This document shows positions 16,103-35,641 of a stretch of DNA of 39,964 bases, piece by piece (the first letter of the stretch is position 1; each line of letters begins with the position of its first letter). The stretch lies in IMG/VR virus record IMGVR_UViG_2711768042_000003. The stretch is one strand, 5' to 3'. Origin of the DNA: a virus. Its lineage: Duplodnaviria > Heunggongvirae > Uroviricota > Caudoviricetes. Under the pieces are notes generated by a model. The model did not search any database. It worked only from the letters and a program-made list of their open reading frames with translations, and was not told the DNA's origin. The translations under genes were made by a program, and so were the position numbers.

Positions 16103-19783
<3,681 letters not shown>

Positions 19784-19809
<26 letters not shown>

Positions 19810-20329
19810 TCAGCAACCCCGGTATCAGTTCATCCAGCGCGGCTGCTTTGTTCATGGCTTTGATGATATCCCGTTTCAGGAAATCAATATGCCGGTTATC
19901 CAGCTCAGGAAAACGTCGCTGCACCGACAGAGGAATACCGTCGAGAATACTGGATATTTCCCTTGCTATACGCGACAGCACGAAAGTACAGAATGCGGTT
20001 TCCACCACTTCAGCCGATTCTTTGGCATTTTTCAGTTCTTGCGCCGTCGCCTGAGCACGAGTCAGGCGATGGCGCTCAAATTCAAGTGTTCCGGGGTGAA
20101 GATCTGCCTCGCTGGCCAGCCGTAATTCTTCAACCTCCCGGCGCAGCTTTTCGTTCTCAATTTCAGCATCCCTTTCGGCATACCATTTTATGACGGCGGC
20201 AGAGTCATAAAGCACCTCATTACCCTTTCCACCGCCTCGCAGAACGGGCATTCCCTGCTCCTGCCAGTTCTGAATGGTACGGATACTCGCACCGAAAATG
20301 TCAGCCAGCTGCTTTTTGTTGACTTCCAT
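19784..20329 (-). CDS. Nu1: terminase small subunit
   Basis: 181 aa, N-terminal HTH MEVNKKQLADIFGASIRTIQNWQ. Confidence 0.95.
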
Positions 20330-20339
20330 TGTTCATTCC

Positions 20340-20540
20340 ACGGACAAAAACAGAGAAAGGAAACGACAGAGGCCAAAAGGCCTGTTTTCAGCACCTGTCG
20401 TTTCCTTTCTTTTCAGGGGGTGTTTTAAATAAAAACATTAAGTTACGGAGAAGAAGAACGGAAACGCCTTAAACCGGAAAATTTTCATAAATAGCGAAAA
20501 CCCGCGCGCCTTCCGCCCCGTAGCCTGCCGGATCGCCGGA
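20340..20540. other. cos region (cosB-cosN-cosQ equivalent)
   Basis: Immediately upstream of Nu1; lambda-like flanks around a 12-mer at 20507-20518; nested inverted repeats at 20358-20407. Confidence 0.65.
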
Positions 20541-20590
20541 AAGGACCCGCAAAGGTGAGAATAATTATCACTTGCATTAATATCCAGCTT

Positions 20591-20760
20591 CTTCCACCAT
20601 CGCACCGGACGGGCGACTATGAGGGACAAAACCGCGCACCATAAACGCGGTAAAAACCCGGTGTGCATCGTTTTTGATTATTTCCGCACACTCGCGCAGA
20701 AGGAATTCCCCGTCGGGCTACGGTCATGGTTAATGCGGAAATACGGCGACGATGCAGCGC
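20591..20760. repeat. copy 1 of a duplicated ~170 bp element
   Basis: About 90 percent identical to 21542-21710, same orientation. Confidence 0.75.
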
Positions 20761-20880
20761 ATGATGTGTCAGGCTTGAATACCTTTATCCGTTAAAAGGG
20801 ATATCAGTTAAGTTATCCCGTGCAGGGTATAAGCCATTATCAAAGCCACTCAGTAGCGAATGGCTTTTGTAATGGACTAT

Positions 20881-21477
20881 TTAATTAGTGATGCTGCGTG
20901 GCTTCATACAAATTTCAGAAATATGATTCTTTTCGTCCAAATGATGCTGGACATCATTTTTATCATCACTCAACAACTCTGCTGTTAATACAATCCCTGC
21001 TGTCTCAGATTTCCAGGAAATGCTGATATCCTGATCATCTGCATCAACATCATATTTTATCGAGTAAGGACTAAAGCTACGTCCAACGAACGCATCATTT
21101 ACCAGTACACGCCCACCCTGTCTGACCTGAAAGTCAACGCGCCCTGAAAGCTGATTTGCTGTTACAAGCAATGCCTTTTTTCTTTTTGTTTTATTGCTCA
21201 TTGCCACCAACTGTTCAGCCATCTCTCTTGTCACACTACCAGAAACTCTTTCTTGAATTTTCACAGAAAATTTTCTGGATGTAGTAGCATCGACATTAAA
21301 AAATCTGGATGTCATCAGGCAGTTATTAACAATTGGCATCAGCTCACTTACGATTGTAAAAAATTCCCGGTAAAGCTCATTTTGCTTTTCAACACACAGC
21401 TTTCCACAATCGTCCAGCTTACGCTCAAGAGCACTTAATCTTTCCATTATTGAATTAATTTTTTGCAACTCTTTCAT
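20881..21477 (-). CDS. hypothetical protein, AT-rich cargo gene
   Basis: 198-aa ORF with GGAGG RBS 6 nt upstream of the ATG; visibly AT-rich against GC-rich neighbours; no family recognised. Confidence 0.7.
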   Translation of the reverse strand: MKELQKINSIMERLSALERKLDDCGKLCVEKQNELYREFFTIVSELMPIVNNCLMTSRFFNVDATTSRKFSVKIQERVSGSVTREMAEQLVAMSNKTKRKKALLVTANQLSGRVDFQVRQGGRVLVNDAFVGRSFSPYSIKYDVDADDQDISISWKSETAGIVLTAELLSDDKNDVQHHLDEKNHISEICMKPRSITN

Positions 21478-21500
21478 CAAAACCTCCTGACAAAGATACC

Positions 21501-21518
21501 GTGCGACCACGGTCGCAC
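21501..21518. promoter_or_regulatory. centromere-like palindrome GTGCGACC-AC-GGTCGCAC (sopC-core-like)
   Basis: Perfect 8-bp arms, 2-bp spacer; one of five copies in the window. Confidence 0.55.
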
Positions 21519-21541
21519 GCTCCTGAATACATGCCCTGTTT

Positions 21542-21710
21542 CTTCCACCCTCGCACAGGACTGGCGAGCATGAGGGACAAACCCGCGAATCATTAGCGCG
21601 GTAAAAACCCGGTGTGCATCGTTTTTGATTATTTCCGCACACTCGCGCAGAGGAGTTCCCCGTCGGGCTACGGTCATGGTTAATGCGGAAATACGGCGAC
21701 GATGCAGCGC
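21542..21710. repeat. copy 2 of the duplicated ~170 bp element
   Basis: Direct repeat of 20591-20760. Confidence 0.75.
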
Positions 21711-21720
21711 GGTATTTAAT

Positions 21721-21738
21721 GTGCGACCACGGTCGCAC
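21721..21738. promoter_or_regulatory. centromere-like palindrome GTGCGACC-AC-GGTCGCAC
   Basis: Identical to the copy at 21501-21518. Confidence 0.55.
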
Positions 21739-21757
21739 ACGAGAAACAAAGAGATTT

Positions 21758-22069
21758 TTATGCTACAGAGGAACAAGCTGGCGGGTAATTCAGCGTAGTG
21801 AATACCGGCATCTCCATCTTGTATGCGTAATGATACTCAGCAGTTGCTCCAGCAGACGCTTTCCAGCCAGGAAGCATCAAAATAGCATCAGCACAACGAA
21901 GCATTGCAAAGCAAATATCCATGTATTCACGTTGTGTCAGACCATTAGGCAAAGTGGCTGGATTCAAGACAGAGTGACCATGTCGTGACAAACGATCTGC
22001 CTCTTTATTAAAGGCGTCACGATTAAAGTTCTCATATCCAGTCATTGGCCCGGCAATATAAATTTTCAT
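21758..22069 (-). CDS. DUF4406-like (nucleoside 2-deoxyribosyltransferase-like) protein
   Basis: 103 aa, N-terminal MKIYIAGPMTG motif typical of this fold; assignment by eye. Confidence 0.55.
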   Translation of the reverse strand: MKIYIAGPMTGYENFNRDAFNKEADRLSRHGHSVLNPATLPNGLTQREYMDICFAMLRCADAILMLPGWKASAGATAEYHYAYKMEMPVFTTLNYPPACSSVA

Positions 22070-22110
22070 TCACTATCCAACAAATTGAGTTCGTTTTTGA
22101 TACAGAGGGA

Positions 22111-22578
22111 TTAATTCGGGCATTGCGTCTTGATGTATTCCTGAAGCGTTCTCAGTGCTGTCTGGTCTCTGATGATTCCGTCCCGGATACCGAGAACGTT
22201 TCGTCCAGCAACTGGAGAGAGTTCGACGGTGGCATCATTGCCCATGCCGGAGGCGCTGGAGGTTTCGGCTGAGGATGGCACAGAGCATTTTCCTTTGACG
22301 AGCACCCGACCACCATTATCAAGCTTGCGCCGAAGAGCATCATTTTCAGCTTTCGCATCAGCCAACTCCTTCGTGTATTTTGCATCGAGCGCAGCAACAT
22401 CACGCTGACGCTGCTGCATGTCAGCGATGGTGGCGGTCGCCTGCTTCAGCTCACTGACTTTTTTATCACGCTGTTCTTTGTAGGCGATGGCGTTATCACG
22501 GTAATGATTAACAGCCCACGACAGGCAGACGATGATGCAGATAACCAGTGCGGAGATAATTGCGGTTACTCTGCTCAT
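22111..22578 (-). CDS. Rz: i-spanin Rz
   Basis: N-terminal TM segment and coiled coil, lambda Rz-like over the N-terminal half; start at MSRVTAIIS. Confidence 0.85.
22152..22358 (-). CDS. Rz1: o-spanin Rz1 (lipoprotein embedded in Rz in the +1 frame)
   Basis: [19 protein letters not shown] lipobox followed by a Pro-rich segment. Confidence 0.7.
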
Positions 22579-23075
22579 TGCTGCCCCCACAAACAGACTT
22601 CACGCTCAATCTCACGGCGAGTCATCAGCCCTTTCCATTGCTTACCGCCAGCATATGTCCAGCGACGTAGTTGATCACATGCACCTTTGATATCGCCCTG
22701 GTTGATTTTGCGAAGAAGTGTCGATGTTCTGAAATTGCCTGCACCCACGTTGTAAACGAACGAGTAAAGAGCACCACGCGTTGTTTCCGGTATATCGACT
22801 TTGATGTACGGGTTAATTTGTCTGGCGACAGTAGCAAGGTCTTTATTCAGGAGAGCTTTGCATTCTGCTTCGGTATACGTTTTACCGAGCATAATGTCTT
22901 TTCCTGTATGCCCGTAACATACAGTCCATACACCAACGATGTCTTTGTAGGGGTTATGTCTCACACCTTCCAGACCATCGTTGCCGCTCGGACCAGAGAT
23001 GAGCACAGATGCTATGGCAATAGCCCCGCCACCAATAGCAGTTGCGACAGCTTTGCGTAATGATGACTGCATCAT
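22575..23075 (-). CDS. R: SAR endolysin (T4-lysozyme-like, GH24)
   Basis: N-terminal Gly/Ala-rich signal-anchor-release segment [20 protein letters not shown] followed by a lysozyme-like domain. Confidence 0.85.
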
Positions 23076-23344
23076 ATTTCCTTCGGTGCTCTCTTTCCCA
23101 ATTCACCAATAACCATCGCCGTGGCGGAAATATTATTGGCATCAGTTTTATCCAATATGTCCTGCAATATCTTCGTGCGCTTCATCTGCTCGCGTTTATT
23201 GAGCCGGTATGTAAGTACACCGAGGATAATGCTGAACGCGACACCGATAATGAAGCCCCAATCCTGCAATGACAGGCTGGCAAAGAACGCAGTAAGACCA
23301 GCACTACCATAAGATGCGCTGCTGTATCGTTCATCCATCTTCAT
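23072..23344 (-). CDS. S: holin with dual-start motif
   Basis: 90 aa, starts MKM (Met-Lys-Met), two predicted TM segments, directly upstream of the endolysin. Confidence 0.75.
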
Positions 23345-23439
23345 ATCTCTTACCTCGCAATAGTTGCTGAGGTTTCGGCTTGGAAACTATACGGCGAGAA
23401 ATAACCCCATCAAAAACGGCAAGGGAATATATTCTTCAG

Positions 23440-24516
23440 TTACTCAAATAACTTTTTCACTTCATCAACTGTCTGAAGATAACGTTCACCCTCAATCTCA
23501 ATACCGATTGCCTGACGACCTAACTTCAGCGCGGCTTTAATAGTAGAGCCTGATCCCATAAAGAAATCGGCAACGATATCTCCGGGGCGGGAACTACTTT
23601 TTATAATATGTTCCATCATCGCTGCAGGTTTTTCACATGGGTGCTTGCCAGGATAATATTGCACAGGAGGAAACTCCCATACATCGGTATAAGGTACATC
23701 AGCAGTAACATGAAATGGGCGGCGCAAATTTTCATACTGAGCCTTCAAATCATCATACTGCTTCTTTACTTCCTCATAACGCAATTTCAGATCGCTATAA
23801 CGCTTTTCATGTTCTGAATAATCAACATTAAAAGGATATGGACACGGGACACCGAGTGAATCTGCCTTCCTGCGAAATAATTCGCATAGTTTATTAAAAT
23901 CACTTAATGATGGAAGCCGCCACTGCGAATAAGAAAACCAGTGCGAACACATCTGCTTTCCTGTTGCTGAATTAATGTCTGCGGCTGATATATCTAACTG
24001 ACGGCGAGCCAGCGAAAAAGCATCAATTAGTGGAGAAAAAATATTTTTTCTTAAATCTGCACATTTTGAAGCATAACCTGACTGACCTTTAGCATAACCT
24101 GACGCGCCGTAATGCTCTGCAAATAATATTCTTTCAGTGGCAGGAAAATAAGCCCTTAAACTTTCTTTATGACAACCGCGCCACATACCACTGGGTTTAG
24201 CCCAAATGATATGGTTCAGAACATTGAAACGGTCGCGAGTTAATAATTCAATTTTTGACGCAAGGCGAGAGCCGGTAAACATATACAGGCTGCCATTAGG
24301 GGCCAATATCCGCCAAAATTCTGCCAAAAATTCATCAATCCACCCCAAAAAGTCAGCATCGCTATCCCACTGGTTATCCCATGCGTTAGCCTTTACGCCG
24401 AAGTATGGTGGGTCTGTTGCAATCAAATTGACCGAGTTATCAGGGATGGTTTTGATAAATTGCAGAGAATCTGCGCAAACGAGTTGCGCGCCATGAATAT
24501 TAGTGGTTTTGAACAT
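23440..24516 (-). CDS. DNA N6-adenine/N4-cytosine methyltransferase (orphan)
   Basis: DPPY catalytic motif near the N-terminus, C-terminal FxGSGST AdoMet motif; start taken at MFKTTNIHG, upstream ATG at 24561 possible. Confidence 0.85.
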   Translation of the reverse strand: MFKTTNIHGAQLVCADSLQFIKTIPDNSVNLIATDPPYFGVKANAWDNQWDSDADFLGWIDEFLAEFWRILAPNGSLYMFTGSRLASKIELLTRDRFNVLNHIIWAKPSGMWRGCHKESLRAYFPATERILFAEHYGASGYAKGQSGYASKCADLRKNIFSPLIDAFSLARRQLDISAADINSATGKQMCSHWFSYSQWRLPSLSDFNKLCELFRRKADSLGVPCPYPFNVDYSEHEKRYSDLKLRYEEVKKQYDDLKAQYENLRRPFHVTADVPYTDVWEFPPVQYYPGKHPCEKPAAMMEHIIKSSSRPGDIVADFFMGSGSTIKAALKLGRQAIGIEIEGERYLQTVDEVKKLFE

Positions 24517-24650
24517 AGCTATTATTTTTTTGCCTGGGTAAGCTAACCCGGTGATGCGCATCGCGGGTGGGCTTTAGGTTCAGCCTATAGCTCTGGCATG
24601 GGTTGACCGCAGGACAAGCTGCAACTTGTCCTGCGCCCACTTTTCAGGCA

Positions 24651-24676
24651 CAAAAAAACCGCCATAAAGGCGGCTT
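24651..24676 (-). terminator. intrinsic terminator in the late leader
   Basis: Minus-strand GCCGCC-TTTAT-GGCGG followed by seven U; an 11-bp stem hairpin lies at 24609-24636. Confidence 0.45.
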
Positions 24677-24712
24677 GTTGGCTGTTGGGTACAAAAAACC
24701 CAACTTAACAAA

Positions 24713-24741
24713 ACAATAACTAAAAACCGTAATTTTGCCAA
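24713..24741 (-). promoter_or_regulatory. candidate late promoter (-35 TTGGCA, 17 bp, -10 TATTGT)
   Basis: Sigma70-like hexamers on the minus strand upstream of the methyltransferase-lysis operon. Confidence 0.4.
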
Positions 24742-24758
24742 GCTTTTTCGTTTTTGTG

Positions 24759-24780
24759 CTGTGCGACCGTGGTCGCACAG
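24759..24780. promoter_or_regulatory. centromere-like palindrome, extended form CTGTGCGACC-GT-GGTCGCACAG
   Basis: 22-bp perfect palindrome 18 bp upstream of the candidate late promoter -35. Confidence 0.55.
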
Positions 24781-24783
24781 TTT

Positions 24784-25011
24784 TTAGAAAGTTGCCTGCT
24801 TATATTCATCGGTCAAAGAATATCGACCAGACCCGCTACGCTTTGCAACCCCAAAACAGATCATCTGTTCGATGATAAATTCAACGGCAGCTTGACTCAA
24901 AAAACAGGCTTCGCTTAACTCTTTCAGGGAAATGCGTGGGTATCCACGCATAACACATTCCACACTCAGGGCCGCTTCAGTCATATTTCCACGAATTTCA
25001 TTAATATTCAT
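24784..25011 (-). CDS. small winged-helix-like DNA-binding protein (hypothetical)
   Basis: 75-aa ORF, second gene of a two-gene minus-strand operon. Confidence 0.5.
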   Translation of the reverse strand: MNINEIRGNMTEAALSVECVMRGYPRISLKELSEACFLSQAAVEFIIEQMICFGVAKRSGSGRYSLTDEYKQATF

Positions 25012-25024
25012 AACGCCTCTCTAA

Positions 25025-25264
25025 TCAATCTTGAAACTGGAAATCAACATCAGCCATAAAGCGGTTCAACTCAGCCAGTTTTGGCCCCATAGTCCCAACT
25101 AAGCGACCAGCCAGTCGGTCTGCCAGGTTGGTACTGTTGAAACCATATTCCTTTTCGAAACGTTCAACCTTCTGCCACAACTCATACAGTTCGTTAGCTA
25201 TCTCCGCAACGTCGTCGCGCATTTTTTCGTTACCTTGATAATTCATAATATCCTCCAAATTCAT
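25025..25264 (-). CDS. hypothetical protein
   Basis: 79-aa ORF divergent from the toxin-antitoxin pair. Confidence 0.5.
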   Translation of the reverse strand: MNLEDIMNYQGNEKMRDDVAEIANELYELWQKVERFEKEYGFNSTNLADRLAGRLVGTMGPKLAELNRFMADVDFQFQD

Positions 25265-25411
25265 ATAGTTAGTGGGTTATTGCCCCTCAATGACACGAAC
25301 TGTAACTCTGCCAAACGAACACATCCAGTGTTATTTTTCACTTTTTAGTGAAATTTTTAATTTGCGCTTTTTTCTTGTTTTGGTGTATTTTATGGCTATG
25401 GAGGCTATAAT

Positions 25412-25723
25412 ATGTTTAACGTGATAACCCACCCTGCAGCACTGGATGAACTGCTTGAACTACCAGATGATTTGCGAGGTCGCATGACCAGATTAATTGA
25501 GCGACTGGAGAAGGAAGGCAACAAACTGAAGATGCCCCATAGCCGTGTAATAGGTGGAGGGCTTTTTGAACTACGAGTAGGGGATAAAAACATCGCAAGA
25601 ACGCTGTACGCCTACGCGACTGGTAACGAAATTTATCTATTGCATGCATTTGTAAAAAAGACACAGAAAACACCGGTGAAGGCTATCGAAATCGCCAGAA
25701 CTCGCCTGAAGGAGATGAACTGA
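25412..25723 (+). CDS. RelE/ParE-superfamily toxin, Gp49/HigB-like
   Basis: 103 aa; GGAGG RBS; toxin-first order with ATGA overlap onto an XRE antitoxin. Confidence 0.75.
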   Translation: MFNVITHPAALDELLELPDDLRGRMTRLIERLEKEGNKLKMPHSRVIGGGLFELRVGDKNIARTLYAYATGNEIYLLHAFVKKTQKTPVKAIEIARTRLKEMN

Positions 25724-26010
25724 TGAAAGCGAAAGGCATCCCGTTTAACGAAGTAAAAGAAAAACTTCTCAACACTCCAGAAGCCATCAAAGGATATGAA
25801 GAGGCCGATAAAGAGCTGGAGATGGTCGAAATGTTATACGAAATGAGGGAAAGAGCAGGTTTAACGAAGTCAGCTCTGGCTGAACGAATGGGATTGCGCC
25901 CGTCAGCTATCAGCCGCCTGGAAAGCAATCCTTTAGGGGCAAGCATGAAAACTTTATCAAAATATGCCCAAGCATGCGGTGCAACGATTAATATTAATGC
26001 CGTCTATTGA
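25723..26010 (+). CDS. HTH XRE-family antitoxin (HigA-like)
   Basis: 95 aa with XRE-type HTH (LTKSALAERMGLRPSAISRLE). Confidence 0.75.
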   Translation: MKAKGIPFNEVKEKLLNTPEAIKGYEEADKELEMVEMLYEMRERAGLTKSALAERMGLRPSAISRLESNPLGASMKTLSKYAQACGATININAVY

Positions 26011-26053
26011 TTAGACCCTTTTCGCTACCCCGTCCAGAAGGGCGGGGTGTGTA

Positions 26054-26272
26054 TCAATGATGCAAACACTCAACAGCAATAACTTGTTGGCAATTCTGAG
26101 CAATCTCCCGCGACATACTAACAAGTCGTGAAATCTCGCCAAGATGCAAGCTGGCTTCTGGAGAAGCCAGAGCAACGCTAACCAGATCTAAAACGGCGTC
26201 GATGTCTTTTAGGTTTGATCCGAGTTCTTCAAGAGTTGATACAGGTGCTTCAGTCATTGAATCTAATACCAT
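26054..26272 (-). CDS. hypothetical small protein behind a LexA-box-like site
   Basis: 72-aa ORF, start 23 bp from the CTGT-N8-ACAG site. Confidence 0.5.
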   Translation of the reverse strand: MVLDSMTEAPVSTLEELGSNLKDIDAVLDLVSVALASPEASLHLGEISRLVSMSREIAQNCQQVIAVECLHH

Positions 26273-26294
26273 TTAATTAAAAAAGGTTATTTGA

Positions 26295-26312
26295 TACTGT
26301 ATAAAATTACAG
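26295..26312. promoter_or_regulatory. LexA-box-like site TACTGTATAAAATTACAG
   Basis: CTGT-N8-ACAG with AT-rich spacer, matching the SOS box consensus. Confidence 0.5.
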
Positions 26313-26514
26313 GGTAAAACTCAAATTTTATAGCCAACTTTCAATGGATTAACTGGTTAAATATCTTTGTAGTCCGATACTTATGTTCCCTTCCTACGCC
26401 TCGCCCAACCACTTTCAAAAGCCCATCACCACCATCAGAAAAGCTCTTTTCGCTCCGTTTTCGTATCATTTCAAAAAGCAATGCCTTTTTGTCCATTTAT
26501 CCCTCCGTGACCAG

Positions 26515-26841
26515 TCACACTTTGAGCGCAAGTTTCAGCCTCGTGGTTGTAAGGTGGCATGAGCCTTCACCATCAAAAATGCATTCTGAAACAGGCATTT
26601 TTTGACCACATCGCGGACAAGTAGTAGATAGCTGTTTCTGCAACTCCTTATAGTTTTTCCTGATCAGCAGTCCGATGACTTCGTTCTCTGAATATGGAAC
26701 TCGCCCTGGTCTACGCAATACACAAATTTCCCCCAACATACGTAACTCGTCAGGTTCCAGAATCCAGTCACGTCTTGATGTTCCTTCCTTCTTCAACCGT
26801 TCCCTGCGTCTTCTTTGCCGTTCTGCCGGTGTCAGCGCCAT
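26515..26841 (-). CDS. hypothetical protein with Arg-rich N-terminus and Cys cluster
   Basis: 108 aa; ERQRRRRERLKK at the N-terminus; CPRCG...C...C motif. Confidence 0.55.
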   Translation of the reverse strand: MALTPAERQRRRRERLKKEGTSRRDWILEPDELRMLGEICVLRRPGRVPYSENEVIGLLIRKNYKELQKQLSTTCPRCGQKMPVSECIFDGEGSCHLTTTRLKLALKV

Positions 26842-26856
26842 AAATCCTCCTAAAAA

Positions 26857-27447
26857 TTACTTAACCCAATTAACTACACCGCCAGCGGCCACAACCGCTT
26901 TTTCACAGTCACGCTCATATCTCAAAGGTTGAAATACACCATCAATAAAATATTTATCTCCACCACATGCTGCTGGAAGTGAAACAGAAAACTGAATACG
27001 ACCATCATCTGGCATTTGCTCACTACAGCTTATCCAACCATCCGGAGTTACCGGAGAGTTGCCAGACAGCTTGTTCAACTTGTAAGTCTGGCTTACAGGT
27101 TTGACACCGTGAAGCATGGTGGCGCGGCAGGCGTTCCAGCCTTCATCAAAACCGACTATGCCATTATTTAAAGTCGGACGAGCATCTGGCACCACCGGCA
27201 CTGGCTTGGCTATATATAGCGGCTGAACATACCAGCCCTTTGATAACCAACTGTCAGCAATGTTTTTACTCCTGGTTATTGCTGGAATACCTAAGCCATT
27301 GTCTGAATGTAGCCATGCCACCGGCTCCTCTTCCAGCGATGCCAGTGCGATTTCATAAGCTCGGCGCTCAATATTGTCTCGAACGTCCAGGCTACCGATT
27401 CGCTCTTTGATTTCTTTAATCAGTTCTTTGTCGGTAAACGTGATCAT
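26857..27447 (-). CDS. hypothetical phage protein
   Basis: Start MITFTDKEL overlaps the upstream stop as TAATG. Confidence 0.55.
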   Translation of the reverse strand: MITFTDKELIKEIKERIGSLDVRDNIERRAYEIALASLEEEPVAWLHSDNGLGIPAITRSKNIADSWLSKGWYVQPLYIAKPVPVVPDARPTLNNGIVGFDEGWNACRATMLHGVKPVSQTYKLNKLSGNSPVTPDGWISCSEQMPDDGRIQFSVSLPAACGGDKYFIDGVFQPLRYERDCEKAVVAAGGVVNWVK

Positions 27448-28025
27448 TATGCTCCAGCCTCCGGTGCTTTCGGCATTACTGCCCAATGAGTGATATTGAC
27501 GTTTTCAAGATCCCCGACCTGAAATGTCCACTGCCAGTCTCCGGTTTCTTTTTGTCCCCAGGTGTACCAGAGAGAACGCCAGCCAATAAGCCAGCCTTCT
27601 CCGTTAGCATCGAATAACAAAACACTTTCATTTGCAGGTGGCAGTTCAACTGACACTGGTGTTACTTTGTTTCCCTGTTCTACAATTCGCTTTCTTGCAG
27701 CTTCCAGCTCAATAGACAATTTTTCCAACTGCTCTTTATGCTTTTTGTATTCCTGATATGCGTGCCAGGACTGTCCTTTGCGCACGCTTTCAGTAATATC
27801 AGCAACCTGCTCTGGAGTTAGCGTAGTCAGTTGCTGGGCTGGAAAAATCATTACTTGTCCGGAATCCCAGTCAAAACCAGCCTGAATTGACTGAACATCA
27901 ACTGATGGTGTTGAACCAATGCTACCTGGTGAATGAACAACAATCGTTACATTCATATCGCAACGCTGGCTGTGTTTGTTGGACAAGATACGATTCACCA
28001 ACTCAGAAAATTTGGAAAATTTCAT
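27447..28025 (-). CDS. DUF551-like phage protein
   Basis: Trp-rich C-terminal domain ending ITHWAVMP. Confidence 0.6.
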   Translation of the reverse strand: MKFSKFSELVNRILSNKHSQRCDMNVTIVVHSPGSIGSTPSVDVQSIQAGFDWDSGQVMIFPAQQLTTLTPEQVADITESVRKGQSWHAYQEYKKHKEQLEKLSIELEAARKRIVEQGNKVTPVSVELPPANESVLLFDANGEGWLIGWRSLWYTWGQKETGDWQWTFQVGDLENVNITHWAVMPKAPEAGA

Positions 28026-28312
28026 GCGGATTCCCCTTTCTCTGCTTTCTCCTGTCGGAACATCATGATCATCAGATCACCTTTGGTTGCCACTCTGACT
28101 GTTGTGCCTGGTTCAATGCTGTTAAGTTCAAATGCGTCATAGAACGCTTCTAATGCCTTCTGGCGTAGCTCCTGTTTGCGCCGTTTTTTCCACTGTTTTA
28201 GAAAAACAGTGGCCGCCCACTTCCCTGCGCTGAACATGATGTAAAAATAACCAAACAGGGCCAGACCAGTATTCAGAACCGTATCGACCGTCATTGTTGT
28301 GTCGATATTCAC
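28022..28312 (-). CDS. small membrane protein (hypothetical)
   Basis: 96 aa with one hydrophobic segment. Confidence 0.5.
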   Translation of the reverse strand: MNIDTTMTVDTVLNTGLALFGYFYIMFSAGKWAATVFLKQWKKRRKQELRQKALEAFYDAFELNSIEPGTTVRVATKGDLMIMMFRQEKAEKGESA

Positions 28313-28731
28313 CGCACCACCTCATGAAAATTTCCCTGATAAAACGCCAGTACACGCTGCATAACTTCGCTCTTCCGACAATCGTGACAAATCATGTTCA
28401 AGCGCCTGTCGTAACGACGTATTTCTCCGTCAGGTAATGACCAGATAAGGTCTGGATCAACCACTACCGATTTCTTCGGCTTTACTCTTGATAGTTTTTT
28501 ACGGGCGTTTTGCCAGTCCTTGCGTGCTTGTGCAGACAGAAATATCCCGGAGCCAGAGATATACAAATCACCACTGGCAGCAAGCTCTCTTGATAAACGA
28601 CTAACAGCACACCGGCTAATACCAGTTTCATCCGCAAGTTGCCTAACCGTTCCTCGTCCATTCAGGCGCACGAGTTCCACAATTTGTTTATTCAGTTCTT
28701 CCCTCTGTTCTGGTGTAAAAGCCTTTGCCAT
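28309..28731 (-). CDS. HTH-containing hypothetical protein
   Basis: 140 aa, N-terminal HTH-like segment VRQLADETGISRCAVSRLSRELA. Confidence 0.55.
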   Translation of the reverse strand: MAKAFTPEQREELNKQIVELVRLNGRGTVRQLADETGISRCAVSRLSRELAASGDLYISGSGIFLSAQARKDWQNARKKLSRVKPKKSVVVDPDLIWSLPDGEIRRYDRRLNMICHDCRKSEVMQRVLAFYQGNFHEVVR

Positions 28732-29330
28732 TACGATTCTCCTTGCCCTTTTACAAGACGGGAGAAAATTGCGGATACATACTTAGCCTGATGAATAGCA
28801 TCAGCCAGGGCATTGTGTCGTTCACCATCAAATGGCATATCTTTTTTAGGATTGAAACCAATAAACTGACCAAGATTAACGATTGTTCGAACATCCTGAT
28901 CATTAAAATATTCCCACGGACAGGCTAAGCCAACGCGCTCATAAGCACCGCGTAAAATTACATTGTCGAATGTTGCTCCATTTCCCCATACTTTCAATTT
29001 TTTTAAATTACATGCATGGCAAGTAATAAAGTGTGATAATTCAAAAAGTGCATCCTTAATATTAAGGGCATCATTAGTACAAATTGCGGCTCTGGCTTCC
29101 TTGCTCTGTTTCAACCACCATAAAATGGTATCACCATCGGCGACACCACCATTCAACATCGAGCTTCTGAGATTCACTGGCACATAAAAAGTAGGACCTA
29201 ATTCCTCACCTTCTGGAGAAAAAAACACTGCCCCGATAGAAACAATTGGAGCACATGTGTTAGTACCCATTGTTTCAAGGTCAATCATTACATCAGACCG
29301 TTTCCTGTCGTAAATAATCTGATTAGTCAC
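28731..29330 (-). CDS. DEDD-type 3'-5' exonuclease
   Basis: DLETMG Exo I motif and C-terminal H...ALAD motif. Confidence 0.7.
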   Translation of the reverse strand: MTNQIIYDRKRSDVMIDLETMGTNTCAPIVSIGAVFFSPEGEELGPTFYVPVNLRSSMLNGGVADGDTILWWLKQSKEARAAICTNDALNIKDALFELSHFITCHACNLKKLKVWGNGATFDNVILRGAYERVGLACPWEYFNDQDVRTIVNLGQFIGFNPKKDMPFDGERHNALADAIHQAKYVSAIFSRLVKGQGES

Positions 29331-29353
29331 GAATAATTCTCCTCAACGTTTAT

Positions 29354-29557
29354 CTATACCCAAATTTTCTGTTGATATGTTCTGGATGGTTTTGGTGTTC
29401 TTTCTGATTCAGGTAAATGAACATAAACGCAATATCCATCACCTAAAAAATCAGAACGAACAACCAGAACTTTCTTACCACGCCGCCGATAAGTATCTGA
29501 AAGACGCTCTGCTTCATCATGCGTCATCGGCCCCTGCTTAAATGGCGTTATTTTCAT
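29354..29557 (-). CDS. hypothetical small protein
   Basis: Start taken at MKITPF; the longer ORF start lies inside the palindrome and is probably an artefact. Confidence 0.45.
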   Translation of the reverse strand: MKITPFKQGPMTHDEAERLSDTYRRRGKKVLVVRSDFLGDGYCVYVHLPESERTPKPSRTYQQKIWV

Positions 29558-29783
29558 TTTCTTGTGCGACCACGGTCGCACCCTCTCTGATTTCCAAGTA
29601 ACGCTTAATCCAAAGATTTTCTATATGCTTATTACCTGGCTGATTTGATAAATACCAATCGGCAATTACAGACTGCTTATTACTATCTGGTCGTGTCCTG
29701 TAACCACAAGTTGGACACCAGATAACATATTCATTTCTTACCCCCGAATACCTTAATTCCGGCTTCGACGGTTTCCTGAACAT
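29538..29783 (-). CDS. small zinc-ribbon protein (hypothetical)
   Basis: CPTCGY motif; start taken at internal Met to avoid overlap; the longer ORF reaches 29858. Confidence 0.45.
   Translation of the reverse strand: MFRKPSKPELRYSGVRNEYVIWCPTCGYRTRPDSNKQSVIADWYLSNQPGNKHIENLWIKRYLEIREGATVVAQENENNAI
29564..29581. promoter_or_regulatory. centromere-like palindrome GTGCGACC-AC-GGTCGCAC
   Basis: Overlaps the 3' end of one ORF (encoding ATVVAQ) and the initiation region of the next. Confidence 0.55.
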
Positions 29784-29790
29784 AACTTGT

Positions 29791-30501
29791 TTACAAAGGC
29801 AGAATGGCACTTCCTGCCCGATGGCGTTTGATGATTTCACTGCGCTTCTCCGCCGCATTTAATAATGCAGTTCGATTTAAGCTCAGACATCGCGACTTAA
29901 TTAAAAGCCAGCGTTCTTTATAATCTTGTCTCCAGCTATCAATAGATATATTCAGTAGAAAACTCAGCTGCCTGTCCTGTTCTCTATCATCAACTGCCTC
30001 AGCACACGTAAGTTCTGACTTAACCTGCTGTGCCGCGTAATAAATCAATTTTCTCATGGCTTTTTTCGTGGAGGCCTTCATTTTTTTAAACCCGCCACCC
30101 GAATGCGCAACCAGAAAATCAAGCCATAACCACTGACAAACAATCACATCATTGTTGTAGTTAGGCTTGCATCCGTAGCAATAATAAAGCCAGGCTGATT
30201 CCTCGTTATTCAACTGACCAATAGCCCTGCGCCAGCTGGCGCTCTGAAAATCAATATCAGTGAGCAACATTGATGATTGTTTAAATGTTTTGCCCTGGTG
30301 GAATCTAACCGGCTCAGCAGGAACAGACACTTCGTATGAGTTATCATCACCTACACTGATTGACCGGACTGGTTTATTGTTAAAGCGTCCTGATCTGCCT
30401 AGACGCATCTGCTCAAGCTGGACCTCTAGGATGCCACGCTGGCGATAATGAATATCAGCCAATGCCGTGGAGACGCAGCTGCGTATATACTCAAGCTCCA
30501 C
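29791..30501 (-). CDS. hypothetical early protein, possible Q-like antiterminator by position
   Basis: 236 aa directly downstream of the cro-like gene; Cys cluster YYCYGC; no family recognised. Confidence 0.5.
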   Translation of the reverse strand: MELEYIRSCVSTALADIHYRQRGILEVQLEQMRLGRSGRFNNKPVRSISVGDDNSYEVSVPAEPVRFHQGKTFKQSSMLLTDIDFQSASWRRAIGQLNNEESAWLYYCYGCKPNYNNDVIVCQWLWLDFLVAHSGGGFKKMKASTKKAMRKLIYYAAQQVKSELTCAEAVDDREQDRQLSFLLNISIDSWRQDYKERWLLIKSRCLSLNRTALLNAAEKRSEIIKRHRAGSAILPL

Positions 30502-30739
30502 GCTTACGGCTCTCCTTAATCGACTGCTTTACCCGCCGAGTTGTAAAGTCACTCTTCAGCTTGTAAGCAGTACGAACTTCAATATCACTTTGCCGCAATG
30601 AAGGAATCTCTCCAGCGGTTAACCATTGGTAAACAGCACCGGGTGTTACACCTACCCCAGCCGCTGCTTTTTCTACACTGCCAAAGTGGCGAATAAGTTC
30701 TTCTGGTTTCATGCGGTTATTATAAGCAATAAATCGCAT
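30491..30739 (-). CDS. cro: Cro-like HTH regulator
   Basis: 82 aa with HTH (VEKAAAGVGVTPGAVYQWL), divergent from the CI-like repressor; start may be the internal Met at 30712. Confidence 0.7.
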   Translation of the reverse strand: MRFIAYNNRMKPEELIRHFGSVEKAAAGVGVTPGAVYQWLTAGEIPSLRQSDIEVRTAYKLKSDFTTRRVKQSIKESRKRGA

Positions 30740-30740
30740 T

Positions 30741-30780
30741 TAAAGCCAGCTATAATAAATAAATTTTATAGCCAGCTATA
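30741..30780. promoter_or_regulatory. immunity operators: two 14-bp sites TAAAGC-CA-GCTATA and TATAGC-CA-GCTATA
   Basis: Inverted-repeat half-sites, centres 26 bp apart, between the divergent repressor genes and overlapping TATAAT-like hexamers. Confidence 0.55.
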
Positions 30781-30803
30781 AGAAGATCATTTATGATTAA
30801 GCT

Positions 30804-31400
30804 ATGAAAACACGAGGCGAACGACTGAAAGCACGCCGTTTAGAGATGAAGCTGACGTTGCGAGAAGTTGCTGAGGCTGTCGATATCTCTATTGCAGGCG
30901 TCCAAAACTTAGAACGTGGCGACGTAATGCCGTCACTGGAGATAGGTATTGCCCTGGCTAAATGCTTACGCAAGCCAGTGCATTGGGTGCTGTATGGGAC
31001 AGAATATGACCCTGATCGCATTCCTGTTATTGGCACAACTGAAAGTGGACCTGATGAAGAGTGGAAGCCAGGACAGGTTCCAAATACTGAGCGATTCCTG
31101 CCATTCATCAGCCAGCGCAATACTGTTTATGCGTTAACTATCAGCAATCTGGCGCAGGGAAACTATCAGCCAGGCGATTTTCTCCTGGTCGATTCTGCGC
31201 TGGAACTGGTTCCCGGCGAGGATGTTCTGGTTCGTGATACTGCAGGAAATATCACCATCCAGCGCCTGGCCCGTTTTGATGATGAAAATTACTATCTGGA
31301 CGGAACAAATTCACAACGCGCCATCTTCAGGAAAAGCGATCTTGAATTTGTTCACCAAATAGTCGGAACGATCAAATCATTCATGGTTGAGGGTAGATGA
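30804..31400 (+). CDS. CI/LexA-like prophage repressor (HTH plus S24-like C-terminal domain)
   Basis: N-terminal XRE HTH; C-terminal LexA-like fold; Gln where the catalytic Lys is expected (ITIQRL). Confidence 0.85.
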   Translation: MKTRGERLKARRLEMKLTLREVAEAVDISIAGVQNLERGDVMPSLEIGIALAKCLRKPVHWVLYGTEYDPDRIPVIGTTESGPDEEWKPGQVPNTERFLPFISQRNTVYALTISNLAQGNYQPGDFLLVDSALELVPGEDVLVRDTAGNITIQRLARFDDENYYLDGTNSQRAIFRKSDLEFVHQIVGTIKSFMVEGR

Positions 31401-31501
31401 CTTAATACGGGGTTTATTGTTTGCTGTAAATCTGGTTTAATGCAGAGCATATGTTCTGTGGGTTGACTCAGGTTACAGCAGCAGAAAAAAGACGAAAAAA
31501 A

Positions 31502-31530
31502 ACCCGAGTCGGCAAACTCGGGTCCTTTTC
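31502..31530 (+). terminator. hairpin plus U-run downstream of the repressor
   Basis: Stem ACCCGAG/CTCGGGT, then CCTTTT; A-run upstream allows bidirectional use. Confidence 0.5.
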
Positions 31531-31645
31531 AGGAAGCAGCCACAGTAACGCGACGGATTCCGTCAATTCAAGATGCGTTTATTGTGGCTGCTCCTGCGGA
31601 TTTTTTCAACCCGAAAAAACATAATTCGCATGGAATGGCTAAAAA

Positions 31646-34600
31646 ATGACATTAAACGATTTCTATGCGGATCGCTTTGGCAGCGATCCGTTCTCGCTAA
31701 TTGAAGCAGCACGGGATGAACTAACCGAGCTGGCACAGATGGCTGGTATCAACTGGTCTGCCTGTTCCGACAACATCCAACTCAACCCTCGCGGGGGTGT
31801 TGAGCGTTACTCTTCATACAATAAAACATCTCCAGAAGCTCTCGAAAAGAGCCTCAAAGGACGCGTAGAAATTTACTCCCGGCTGGAACACAGCAAAGGG
31901 ATTGATTACCCGTTCATTAACTTCGTCCATAAAGGCAGCGATGCTGGCTCATGGAGCGGTTTCTCCTTCCTGTTTTCTGAATATCGCCGTGAGCAACAAC
32001 GGAATAATGCGACCGTGGTCGCACAACCGGAAGAAGAACGGGCAAGAATAGAACGTCAGGCCGAAGCACGTCGTCGCCGTGAAGAACAAAAACGAATTAA
32101 TGACCTGAAAAACAACCAAATGGACCATGAACGTTTGCTGGGATGGCTGGCATTCCACAGCGCGTGGGAACATGCTCCTGCAGAAGACGGCTCATGGCCA
32201 TATGCGATTAAAAAAGGTATTCGTGACGTTTTTAATTCGTGTGATGTGCGTCGCGTGACCAGTCACGACAGCGCAAAATGGAGCAGGGGGCCAACCACGT
32301 ATATGGCTATCCCTCTGGCTCACCTGGACGGTCGTTACGATGGTCGTATTGTGGGTTGGCAGCGAATCGACAAACAAGGTGGAAAATACCAGACCAGCGC
32401 CGTAACCAGCGGCGATTTCGTCGGTGCCTGCTTTGTTATCGGTGAGCTAAAAGGGGCGCAAAACATCGCTGTTACAGAAGGTTTTGCTACTGGTGCATCC
32501 ATCTGGCTTGCCACGAAAAAAGATAAACGCTTTGACGCTGTGGTTGTCGCTGTATCCGCTAATAACATGGTTCATGTTGTGGAACAACTGGTAAACATGT
32601 ACCCGGCGGCAAAAATCACCTGCGCACTGGATAATGACCGGAAATCAGCCACAGAAGGAAAAGGGAATACCGGCCTGCGGACTGGCTATGAAATCTTATC
32701 GAAATTCAACGATGTCCGCTGCGTCTATCCAACTTTTGAAGACGATCCGCAAATGGAGTGCAGTGACTTCAACGACCTGCACAAACTGCGTGGACTTCGT
32801 GAAACAGCACGTCAACTGTTTGCAACTGCAAACCGCCTGAAAACCGGCACTGATTTGCTATCTCTGACGCTCAACCGCCTGAAGACAATTAAGCGGGATA
32901 ACCGTCGTACTTTTGCCAAAGAGCTGCTGAGAGCGGTGGATATTGGCATGCTAACCTGTCCGGTTCCTAACAGTCCGTCAGACTTATTTAACATGTTCTG
33001 CATCGTTCTGCGTGAAATGGGGCTGGAAAATATCTATCGCGCTACGGTAAAAGACCACATTGCCCGTCGCCTGAATAAAAAGTGCCGTATTGCCCAGGCT
33101 CCGCGCTCATTCAGCGAACGCATAACTGATCCCAATAAACGTCCTCAACATATCACCTATAAGCGTTTTGAAACTTCGGTAATGACCGATGACGTCCTGA
33201 AGTATGTGCAATCACTACAGGGGATAGTCATCGTTCGTGCTGGTATGGGTTCCGGCAAATCTACTGGATTGTTACGACCTTTAATGCATAGCTCAGAACG
33301 TGGTATCTCTGTTGCTCACCGTGTTTCCCTTATTGGTGGCCTGTGGGAAATGATGACAGAAGGAAAAGGTGTAAAAGCCGATATCCTGCACTATCAGGAC
33401 CCTGGCTATCAGGAAATGGCTCCATACGCCAGTAAACTGACCATCTGCATAAACTCGATTGTTAAAAACTGCTGGCAACCGTTGATGCGCCAGCACGACT
33501 ATTTTGGCTTTGACGAGGCCACGCAAGGGCTACGTGCCGTTCTTTCCGGTCGGGCTATGGAAAACCCGGTGGCTGTATTCAATACGTTAATCGACGCGCT
33601 GGCCAGAACGGAACAACACCCAATAATGGTGGATGCTGATGCGAACGATCTGCTGGTTGACCTGGCTGAACTGGCTATGAAACGCCGTGAAGAACTAGGT
33701 TTACCGGCATGGCTGCAGATCCACGTAATTGAATTACCTGTTGATGTTCGCAACCGCGAAACAGGTGAGCCAATCCGGGTTTTTTATACAGAAAAAGATC
33801 GCATTATGACCGAGGTGGTGAAAGCTGTATCGGATGGCGAAAAAATCATGTTGGCCACCGACAGCTCCACCTTTGCAGAAGATGTGACAGCCACCCTGAG
33901 AATGCATTTTCCTGGTAAGAAATTTCTGTGTGTAAACCAGAAAAACAAACCAGAGCCAGAAGTTGAAGCATTTACCAATCAACCGAAAAAGATGGTCAAA
34001 AAATACGACGGCCTGATTTATAGCCCGTCTATTTCATCCGGTGTGTCGATTGAGCAAAAACATTTTGACCGTCATTTCGGCATGTTCTGTGGTGAAGTTG
34101 TACCCAGCGACGCAGTGCAAATGCTACGCCGCGACCGTACAGCAAAAGAATTTATTATCGGCTTTGATAAAGCTCGCGCAAAACGTGAAACTGACCCGCA
34201 AAAAATAGAACGAGCATTCGCCCAGGCATTGCTTGCTACCGCAGGCATGAACGGTGAACTGACGGATGTCGTTTTCGATGGCGACCGTATATCAATGGGG
34301 GTGGCCAATACCGACTTTACCAGGATGAAAATTAAAGCAGCCGCAATTGAAGCGTCTGCGCGTAACGACTACGCCAGCAACATGATCTGCATCATGCACA
34401 GCGACGGTTATAAGGTATCGCCGCTGGCCACCGATTATGCTGCGAATGATATCGGTAAAGATCTGCGTAAAGAAGCGCGGGATATTGTGTGGGAACAGAC
34501 ACTGGATCTGCATCTCAATACAGAAACTCCACAAGAATCAGAGCGTGAAGAACTGCTAAAAAAACGCGCGCTGACGCTTGAAGAACAAGCAAAACTTGTC

Positions 34601-35641
34601 CGCTGGGATATTGAGAACGAACTGAAACTACCGGTTGAAGAAGGCACGCTGAAATTCTATTTCGATGGTGCTCGAGACAAAGTTCGCCGCTATGAAACAA
34701 TGCTTTTAGATGAGGTAACAGCTCGTCGTTACGACCGGGAAGAAGCAGCCATCAATTTTACCTACGCATACCGTCAGGCGGGACAGTGGCAATATTTTGT
34801 AGTGACCGCGATGACTCGCGAGCAGGCTGATGATGTCTTTAAAACTAAATTCCCTGGAATAATCGACTACAAGGTAAAAGCTACTCCTACTGTTGAAGTC
34901 GGGGCGCGCGGTTTCTATGCGCTTAAATCAGCAACTCTCCGGCAGTACTTTATCGACTGCGGTATCAACCCTGAGACTATGACCGGCGAGGCGACTCAGG
35001 AGCGTCTCAAATTCGCTCGAGATAACCTCATGACAGCCGAACGCCGTGACCTGTTGAATAACGTTCTGCACATTGGTGGTTTTATGACGCCAAAAGGGAA
35101 GCCTAAAGTGCCGGAAGCGTTGTTTAAAAACATTTGCGACTCTCTTGGCCTTAAAACAGGTAAACGTCGCGGCAGAGACGGCGATAAGCGTCCAACCTTG
35201 CGTTTTGTTGAGCCTGAATCAGCGGCATTTATGCTGGATATTCTTGTTCAGCGTCAGAAAGATGGCCTAACCCTAAAAACGCGTAAAGCCGAGAAGACAG
35301 CCATCGAAATGGATCGCGATTTGGATCTCAATATATATATGGATGATAAAACGCGATCCACAAACGAGCAGGTTCAAAACGCCCCTCATTCAGTAATTTC
35401 TGAGGCTTTGGCCGTATTGCCGGTGGCTGTTCCTGAGTCCTGGGCGATGAGTGCGCTTTCCGGTGAGGAGCTGGCCACTATGTCATCATGGTCATCAGCC
35501 AGCATAGCTATGACGTTTGCATCTCTGTATCTCACAGAGTTCATGGATCACTTGTCCAGCAATGAATTGCGGCGGTTACGAGAATACATTACCGGGAATA
35601 GCTCATGCAGCTACGAAGAGCAGGGCGCTTTCTATGGGTAA
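31646..35641 (+). CDS. repA: multidomain replication protein RepA (primase Toprim plus P-loop helicase)
   Basis: 1331 aa; Toprim motifs (VTEGFATG, DND); Walker A GMGSGKST; Walker B FGFDEA. Confidence 0.9.
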   Translation: MTLNDFYADRFGSDPFSLIEAARDELTELAQMAGINWSACSDNIQLNPRGGVERYSSYNKTSPEALEKSLKGRVEIYSRLEHSKGIDYPFINFVHKGSDAGSWSGFSFLFSEYRREQQRNNATVVAQPEEERARIERQAEARRRREEQKRINDLKNNQMDHERLLGWLAFHSAWEHAPAEDGSWPYAIKKGIRDVFNSCDVRRVTSHDSAKWSRGPTTYMAIPLAHLDGRYDGRIVGWQRIDKQGGKYQTSAVTSGDFVGACFVIGELKGAQNIAVTEGFATGASIWLATKKDKRFDAVVVAVSANNMVHVVEQLVNMYPAAKITCALDNDRKSATEGKGNTGLRTGYEILSKFNDVRCVYPTFEDDPQMECSDFNDLHKLRGLRETARQLFATANRLKTGTDLLSLTLNRLKTIKRDNRRTFAKELLRAVDIGMLTCPVPNSPSDLFNMFCIVLREMGLENIYRATVKDHIARRLNKKCRIAQAPRSFSERITDPNKRPQHITYKRFETSVMTDDVLKYVQSLQGIVIVRAGMGSGKSTGLLRPLMHSSERGISVAHRVSLIGGLWEMMTEGKGVKADILHYQDPGYQEMAPYASKLTICINSIVKNCWQPLMRQHDYFGFDEATQGLRAVLSGRAMENPVAVFNTLIDALARTEQHPIMVDADANDLLVDLAELAMKRREELGLPAWLQIHVIELPVDVRNRETGEPIRVFYTEKDRIMTEVVKAVSDGEKIMLATDSSTFAEDVTATLRMHFPGKKFLCVNQKNKPEPEVEAFTNQPKKMVKKYDGLIYSPSISSGVSIEQKHFDRHFGMFCGEVVPSDAVQMLRRDRTAKEFIIGFDKARAKRETDPQKIERAFAQALLATAGMNGELTDVVFDGDRISMGVANTDFTRMKIKAAAIEASARNDYASNMICIMHSDGYKVSPLATDYAANDIGKDLRKEARDIVWEQTLDLHLNTETPQESEREELLKKRALTLEEQAKLVRWDIENELKLPVEEGTLKFYFDGARDKVRRYETMLLDEVTARRYDREEAAINFTYAYRQAGQWQYFVVTAMTREQADDVFKTKFPGIIDYKVKATPTVEVGARGFYALKSATLRQYFIDCGINPETMTGEATQERLKFARDNLMTAERRDLLNNVLHIGGFMTPKGKPKVPEALFKNICDSLGLKTGKRRGRDGDKRPTLRFVEPESAAFMLDILVQRQKDGLTLKTRKAEKTAIEMDRDLDLNIYMDDKTRSTNEQVQNAPHSVISEALAVLPVAVPESWAMSALSGEELATMSSWSSASIAMTFASLYLTEFMDHLSSNELRRLREYITGNSSCSYEEQGAFYG
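32008..32025. promoter_or_regulatory. centromere-like palindrome inside repA (outer base of one arm mismatched)
   Basis: ATGCGACC-GT-GGTCGCAC, encodes NATVVAQ in the RepA frame. Confidence 0.45.

Follow-up and report, generated by a model that had tools for sequence, protein, structure and literature searches.

The centromere sites of phage N15, IR1 to IR4, are inverted repeats (IRs) bound by the partition protein SopB (Ravin and Lane 1999; Grigoriev and Lobocka 2001; both cited in PMC7205306 and PMC5016525), and such repeats have been described as "scattered across the genome" (PMC5016525, citing Ravin and Lane 1999). Their sequences are given as oligonucleotides in Table 4 of PMC7205306, where it was also found that N15 SopB forms foci on an IR array and that SopB-mediated silencing adjacent to the array is measurable, so that silencing served as an assay. 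The SopB proteins of N15 and F are 49% identical, and F SopB works with its own site only and not with the N15 sites (PMC7205306). The phiKO2 record (NC_005857, features of Casjens et al. 2004) lists four "putative plasmid partitioning site" features, all with the same core. Here, we describe five palindromes with this core in IMG/VR virus record IMGVR_UViG_2711768042_000003, a 39,964-nucleotide stretch of DNA from the Caudoviricetes ("the window" refers to this whole stretch). The five palindromes very probably constitute the dispersed SopB-type centromere of an N15-type linear phage-plasmid. This reading is held because the sites are identical to those of N15, because they are syntenic, because near-identical replicons carry sopAB, and because site and ParB vary together; from these comparisons we infer binding, partition and transcriptional effects for this phage. 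The feature is already known in the N15 group, and what is described here is its occurrence in a lineage in which it is unannotated and has one extra copy.

A search of the window for the pattern GTGCGACC-NN-GGTCGCAC, tolerating up to two mismatches, returned exactly five occurrences. As palindromes, they have no strand; from right to left in the window they are:

32007-32024 (core 32008-32023), no strand: IR1-type site, a predicted SopB site inside repA, orthologous to N15 IR1 (33480) and phiKO2 site 37905
29564-29581, no strand: IR2-type site, a predicted SopB site downstream of Q, in the C-terminal codons of a Lar-like gene
24759-24780, no strand: IR3-type site, a predicted SopB site and a perfect 22-bp palindrome, orthologous to N15 IR3 (41125) and phiKO2 site 45384
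21721-21738, no strand: IR4a, a predicted SopB-type site 20 nt downstream of the stop of a DUF4406 gene, at the same position as phiKO2 site 48618
21501-21518, no strand: IR4b, a predicted SopB-type site near a cargo gene, identical to N15 IR4 with its flanks at 22 of 22 positions

The 18-mers at 21501-21518, 21721-21738, 24761-24778 and 29564-29581 are perfect, and the third of these extends to the 22-bp palindrome listed above. The 18-mer at 32007-32024 has one mismatch, in its outer base (ATGCGACC...). The 16-bp core TGCGACC-NN-GGTCGCA, which starts at 21502, 21722, 24762, 29565 and 32008, is perfect in all five copies. A previous examination of the letters of this DNA and its open reading frames (ORFs), which we call the sequence-only reading, had already proposed five dispersed palindromes, and the pattern search and shuffles bear this out. 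That reading was right about the mismatch in the rightmost copy but placed its start at 32008, which is where the core starts; the 18-mer begins at 32007. The copies are single and dispersed over about 10.5 kb (21.5-32.0 kb), with spacings of 220, 3040, 4803 and 2443 bp and no tandem array.

Could such a set arise by chance or from compositional bias, with no function? The 14 specified bases do occur elsewhere: when one genome per species was scanned for TGCGACCNNGGTCGCA, the matches listed were single and isolated and fell in unrelated and often high-GC taxa. Against this explanation, the matches at every locus listed in that scan amounted to one site per 8 kb or less, five copies were observed in the window where 0.01 were expected, none of 100 dinucleotide-preserving shuffles reached five, and the copies are syntenic in genomes that are only about 75% identical. 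TGCGACC/GGTCGCA is also the only perfect palindrome with 7-nt arms that occurs at least three times in the window. A fortuitous origin is thus vanishingly improbable, and chance is excluded.

We compared the positions of the sites with those in related phages. Four positions of the N15 genome carry this core, namely 33480 (in repA), 35931 (after Q), 41125 and 45562 (before gene 59), and they match the published IR1-IR4. In the orientation of N15, sites 32008, 29565 and 24762 of the window have flanks that align with those of IR1, IR2 and IR3, and window 21500-21521 is 100% identical to N15 45560-45581. Of the four phiKO2 sites, one lies in repA, one follows Q, one precedes the late -35 element by 20 nt and one follows the DUF4406-like gene by 17 nt. 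The window, N15, phiKO2 and an Enterobacter Ravinvirus have four contexts in common: within repA, past Q, ahead of the late promoter, and near cos. IMG/VR contigs carry two to four copies per locus in the same contexts. Like the window, N15 has an identical 16-bp core in sites that are dispersed and not tandem; unlike the window, which has five sites, N15 has four, and the IR4 position of the window is doubled, with copies 220 bp apart around a 188-bp element. The IR1 core is perfect in the window and has one mismatch in N15, and the central dinucleotides of the two differ. The phiKO2 genome shares the core and the four syntenic positions with the window but has only four predicted sites. The genes and signals that define these contexts in the window are:

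31646-35641, plus strand: repA, encoding a multifunctional primase/helicase-type replication protein of 1331 aa (profile hits); holds IR1
29791-30501, minus strand: Q-type late antiterminator (Pfam Phage_antiter_Q, E=4e-85)
29538-29858, minus strand: Lar-like restriction-alleviation gene of 106 aa (phrog_6795, E=1.5e-45), overlapping the 3' end of Q; contains IR2
24713-24741, minus strand: late promoter TTGGCA-17-TATTGT, presumed Q-dependent, found by consensus scan and collinear with the annotated late promoters of N15 and phiKO2
24656-24676, minus strand: terminator hairpin past the late promoter, found by scan and presumed to be where Q antitermination acts; N15 and phiKO2 annotate an equivalently placed terminator
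21758-22069, minus strand: DUF4406 gene (Pfam DUF4406, E=3.7e-34), the conserved left neighbour of the IR4 position

The RepA protein is named "plasmid replication protein, CyRepA1 family" by the Prokaryotic Genome Annotation Pipeline (PGAP) in a near-identical record, and the IR1-type site reads ATVVAQ at about codons 122-127 of it. The flanks of the IR2-type site are conserved with N15 IR2 (35931) and phiKO2 40345, and the Lar-like frame that contains it has an open length of exactly 321 nt in all four genomes, those of N15, phiKO2, the Enterobacter phage and the window. At the IR3-type site, 20 nt separate the 16-bp core from the late -35 element TTGGCA (24741-24736, minus strand). In N15 this gap is 21 nt, with the -35 that follows IR3 annotated at 41162; the -35 following phiKO2 site 45384 is annotated at 45421. 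At the IR4 position, the counterparts of the DUF4406 gene are N15 gene 57 and phiKO2 gp58, and phiKO2 site 48618 is 17 nt past the latter. IR4b lies 12 nt upstream of AGGAGG, the ribosome-binding site (RBS) of the cargo gene that starts at 21477. The placement of copies next to a candidate late promoter and next to the cargo gene RBS agrees with the sequence-only reading, and the promoter was recovered independently by the consensus scan.

A close known system outside the N15 group is sopC of F. Both F sopC and the window sites belong to the class of 16-bp inverted repeats, bound in F by a homologous SopB through its helix-turn-helix (HTH) domain. The cores differ by one base per arm (TGGGACC in F, TGCGACC in the window); the F core had been given as TGGGACCACGGTCCCA in the sequence-only reading, correctly (PMC3597684). 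In F, however, sopC consists of tandem 43-bp repeats, each with TGGGACCACGGTCCCA, at one locus adjoining sopAB, whereas the window sites are single, spread over about 10.5 kb, and far from the position that sopAB occupies in relatives. An F-type sopC centromere was therefore rejected on the lack of tandem arrangement, the core, and the distance from sopAB. PY54 SpyAB and the dispersed chromosomal parS sites resemble the window in using multiple single palindromes for a ParB-family protein; PY54 differs in having the F-type arm TGGGACC at 8-11 sites, and chromosomal parS differs in its sequence (TGTTNCACGTGAAACA) and in being clustered around oriC.

The PY54 comparison indicated that the sites change with the partition protein. 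N15, phiKO2 and the Enterobacter Ravinvirus have four sites each and the window and Escherichia phage PhiR46_1 have five each, all with TGCGACC. PY54, with a ParB about 52% identical, has eight perfect and three near sites of the F type TGGGACC-NN-GGTCCCA. The arm change in PY54 is mirror-symmetric and, judging from the sequences compared, tracks the partition protein. The copy inside repA makes this especially clear: at homologous RepA codons (about 122-127), the N15 group has GCG ACC GTG GTC GCA (ATVVA) and PY54 has GGG ACC ACG GTC CCA (GTTVP), such that PY54 RepA keeps the palindrome at the cost of A-to-G and A-to-P replacements. The sole core mismatch of N15 IR1 is a synonymous GCA-to-GCT change. 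In the Lar-like gene, the central dinucleotide of the copy varies (ATVVA, ATSVA, ATTVA) while the arms are fixed. Because the arms stay symmetric and fixed while the residues change, the conserved thing is the DNA site and not the peptide. We confirmed, in RepA and in the C-terminus of the Lar-like protein, that the two intragenic copies both read ATVVAQ, as had been pointed out before; the two proteins share this peptide because the same 18 nt are read in the same frame, and the likeness is real yet a by-product of the site. The RepA codons provide a clean case of coding sequence shaped by an embedded DNA-binding site.

The arm change also bears on whether the palindromes act instead as RNA hairpins, that is, as rho-independent terminators or RNA-processing signals in late or early transcripts. 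In the N15 record, IR4 carries the annotation "putative rho-indep. transcription terminator", a scan flagged the 21502 copy as terminator-like on the minus strand, and all five copies fold in RNA as 6-9-bp hairpins. Yet a T-tail, and a weak one, follows just one of the five (the 21502 copy), and the combination of a G+C-rich hairpin with a directly following U-tract at the end of a transcription unit, by which rho-independent terminators are recognized, was not found. Termination would be harmful about 120 codons into the essential repA, where one copy lies, and inside the Lar-like gene, where another does. The fold z-scores are mostly -1.3 to -2.7, which is unremarkable, and a hairpin model predicts neither identical arms at every copy nor the switch of arms with ParB type in PY54. 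We consider an RNA role highly improbable.

Several features establish what kind of replicon carries these sites. The gene at the right end of the window is the following:

37851-39764, minus strand: protelomerase of the TelK/TelN type (all four Pfam TelK domains, E down to 1.6e-50)

This gene identifies the replicon as a linear plasmid with hairpin ends. In PhiR46_1, telL is annotated at the corresponding end, and the right end of the window, about 200 bp past the gene, coincides with the hairpin telomere. The minus strand of the window holds a lambda-like head, tail and lysis block; this late-gene module is lambda-like in the window, and N15 has its own. The window is 97-98% identical to Escherichia phages PhiR46_1 and YDC107_1 over 94% of a 12-kb test stretch; across the repA-Q region, its identity to N15 and phiKO2 is about 75%. 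Based on the protelomerase, RepA, the lambda-like late genes and the near-identity to PhiR46_1, the window is an N15-type linear phage-plasmid.

All five sites, and no further ones, recur in PhiR46_1. Its ParA and ParB genes adjoin telR, within the ~6.3 kb that lie past the left edge of the window. Its ParB has a SopB_HTH domain and shares 74% identity with N15 SopB, the HTH region being almost unchanged between the two; among solved structures, F SopB (3MKY, E=6e-39) is the best match to this ParB. Among complete Escherichia coli genomes, 15 of 5426 carry close sopAB by megablast (at least ~85% nucleotide identity; genes below roughly 85% would be missed), all but one record on ~46-kb N15-type replicons. 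The sopAB-bearing plasmids of ~46 kb include ones that match the window at 99.8-100% over a compared 3.6-kb stretch. The earlier proposal that these are SopB/ParB centromere sites with sopAB lying outside the window is thus supported by the matches to N15 and phiKO2, by synteny, and by the SopA and SopB of PhiR46_1.

By analogy with N15 and F, a SopB dimer, a ParB-family protein with a helix-turn-helix that would be encoded near the other telomere, outside the window, may bind each 16-bp inverted repeat, and the bound sites would nucleate partition complexes. These would be positioned by the SopA ATPase, such that every daughter cell receives the low-copy linear prophage. Given where the sites lie, within repA, past Q and ahead of the late promoter, SopB loaded there probably modulates late transcription as well; by the same analogy, SopB bound at IR2 and IR3 is likely to affect late transcription that depends on Q. 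Judging by its title, a 2008 study by Ravin, Rech and Lane (cited in PMC11652158) reportedly found that the Sop system facilitates N15 late gene expression. The sequence-only reading had suggested silencing of nearby promoters: an excess of SopB can indeed silence near IR arrays (PMC7205306), but facilitation is what the title of the only dedicated N15 study reports, and the suggestion agrees with the N15 precedent only in part.

We next consider the fifth copy. The features that surround it are:

21524-21710, no strand: copy A of a 188-bp lambdoid element, between IR4b and IR4a, 92-94% identical to phages 2B8 and Ayreon
20881-21477, minus strand: cargo gene of 198 aa, a truncated member of phrog_2571, bracketed by both element copies
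20573-20760, no strand: copy B of the 188-bp lambdoid element, next to cos

The 188-bp element is common beside cos in lambdoid phages such as 2B8 and Ayreon. Copies A and B form a direct repeat, 87-98% identical, that brackets the cargo gene and IR4b, and the order in the direction of late transcription is DUF4406, IR4a, copy A, IR4b, cargo, copy B, a lambda-like cos, and terminase. The fifth copy is best explained as a local duplication of the IR4 position that occurred when the element and the cargo gene were inserted or duplicated beside cos; it represents a rearrangement and not a new kind of site. On the plus strand, antisense to the late operon, copy B has an intact ORF of 58 aa (20619-20795) that is called by PGAP and by the PhiR46_1 annotation in relatives; profile searches with it found no Pfam or PHROG family, and in copy A the same ORF is cut by a stop after eight codons. 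A 66-aa minus-strand ORF through IR4b was rejected, as a 1-nt indel between the element copies breaks its frame and no annotation calls it. The cargo protein was unrelated to N15 gp59 on comparison.

Relative to PhiR46_1 (18054-19487), the window has an 826-bp deletion that shortens a 286-aa cargo protein to 198 aa and also takes out the 149-aa gene that follows. The DNA that separates the small terminase gene from copy B (window ~20320-20560) appears to resemble closely the left and right ends of lambda, with a putative cosN near 20505-20520. An imperfect 25-nt inverted repeat is located at 20354-20410.

Some observations weigh against reading the five palindromes as a centromere. sopAB is not in the window, and its presence in this phage is deduced from relatives whose compared parts are 98-100% identical. 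Moreover, IR4-type palindromes are found on E. coli chromosomes, in integrated lambdoid prophages of genomes with no close sopAB by megablast. A perfect site alone is therefore no proof of centromere function, and the two cos-proximal copies could be passengers. Finally, phage 2B8 (94-109, 92 bp from its right cos end) has TGCAACCACGGTTGCA at the spot homologous to window 21502. This variant, TGCAACC..GGTTGCA, is a mirror-symmetric change of two bases that leaves the palindrome perfect, and it hints at a constraint on palindromy outside a Sop context, or else at templated quasi-palindrome correction. Such correction is an established process and could account for the symmetric variant.

Complete E. 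coli genomes were compared with a 261-bp query around the IR pair (window ~21490-21750). At least 80% of this query is matched in 212 of the 5426 genomes, and the element is matched in 3181. Perfect TGCGACCACGGTCGCA stands beside the 188-bp element and cos in the integrated prophages of RM14723, M18, AR_0085, WP9 and MS1657, and chromosomal loci with the palindrome include L123 (6203-6438), L370 (2503), L371 (2503), L372 (2513) and L373 (2688). None of the palindrome-bearing chromosomes examined belongs to the 15 genomes with close sopAB. On the MS1657 chromosome, a prophage that carries nin genes, rusA and Q holds the entire IR-element-IR module at 99.7-100% identity, and the complete module was found in about 11 chromosomes and about 14 plasmids. 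In the chromosomal copy of CFSAN029787, the second site (IR4a) has decayed to GAGCGACCACGATCGCAC. The palindrome is not a host-wide repeat, a possibility that had been raised with the sequence-only reading, and there are one or two copies per prophage; yet it does occur on chromosomes without close sopAB.

These data bear on the idea that the palindrome belongs to a general lambdoid element with a SopB-independent role, as an operator of the small ORF or a packaging site, at least for the two copies near cos. The excess of genomes that match at least 80% of the query (212) over those with close sopAB (15) is in its favor, as are the symmetric variant retained in 2B8 and the presence, about 53 nt downstream of the palindrome, of a 58-60-aa ORF called by PGAP in some genomes. 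With 3181 element matches and 212 at 80% coverage, however, most copies of the element have no aligned palindrome flanks, which argues that the palindrome is not intrinsic to it. Several chromosomal copies are 99-100% identical to the plasmid module, which fits recent exchange between mosaic lambdoid genomes, and the second site in CFSAN029787 has decayed. The small ORF has no known family, and in an IMG/VR scan the 2B8 variant TGCAACCNNGGTTGCA gave only single hits per locus and no multi-copy lineage. Nor would a general element account for the other three copies, those within repA, past Q and by the late promoter. We regard this idea as distinctly unlikely. The palindrome in integrated prophages is instead most likely a hitch-hiker spread by module exchange, because few element copies reach 80% coverage, the chromosomal copies are near-identical to the plasmid module, and one IR4a has decayed.

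It is also conceivable, though unlikely, that the prophage-borne cos-proximal palindrome acts as a decoy that titrates or mis-pairs SopB against N15-type plasmids, or as an operator for the small antisense ORF. If the decoy idea were true, titration of SopB would destabilize incoming or resident N15-type phage-plasmids and thereby provide a form of prophage competition. Apart from any such role, the palindrome in integrated prophages bears on module exchange between phage-plasmids and lambdoid phages.

With the five palindromes read as a SopB-type centromere, the N15 centromere layout is conserved while the number of sites is variable: four, five, eight or more, and Klebsiella-type relatives have additional ones behind the capsid gene. 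Apart from giving a correct label to five sites that lacked annotation in a common E. coli phage-plasmid group, the finding is of little general consequence; the group, of the PhiR46_1/YDC107_1 type, consists of ~46-kb linear plasmids of clinical and animal isolates.

The extra sites of the Klebsiella-type N15 relatives in IMG/VR fall into two classes. At about 27 loci, an additional 18-mer lies between the stop of the major capsid gene and its terminator, and at about 10 loci another lies next to short tandem repeats inside a downstream gene. Examples, drawn from loci L250-L369, are L250 (14593), L284 (9382) and L253 (7220); phiKO2 has neither class.

Between IR3 and IR2, the window has a RelE/ParE-family toxin gene followed by an HTH gene (25412-26010, plus strand; annotated by PGAP at 24113-24711 of the near-identical record NZ_CP126957.1). 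The arrangement is as in N15 genes 48-49, and the pair would be a second plasmid-stability module. NZ_CP126957.1 itself is an E. coli record of 68,426 bp that is labelled circular and matches the window at 100% over 3.6 kb, yet differs from it in having an inverted duplication and capsid pseudogenes. Its protelomerase-to-repA region is present in two inverted copies joined head to head. Inverted duplication across a protelomerase gene is the usual artefact of reads that pass through a hairpin telomere, and the plasmid is probably linear, ~46 kb long and wrongly assembled into a circle. In the same record, the capsid and head-tail joining genes are annotated as pseudogenes.

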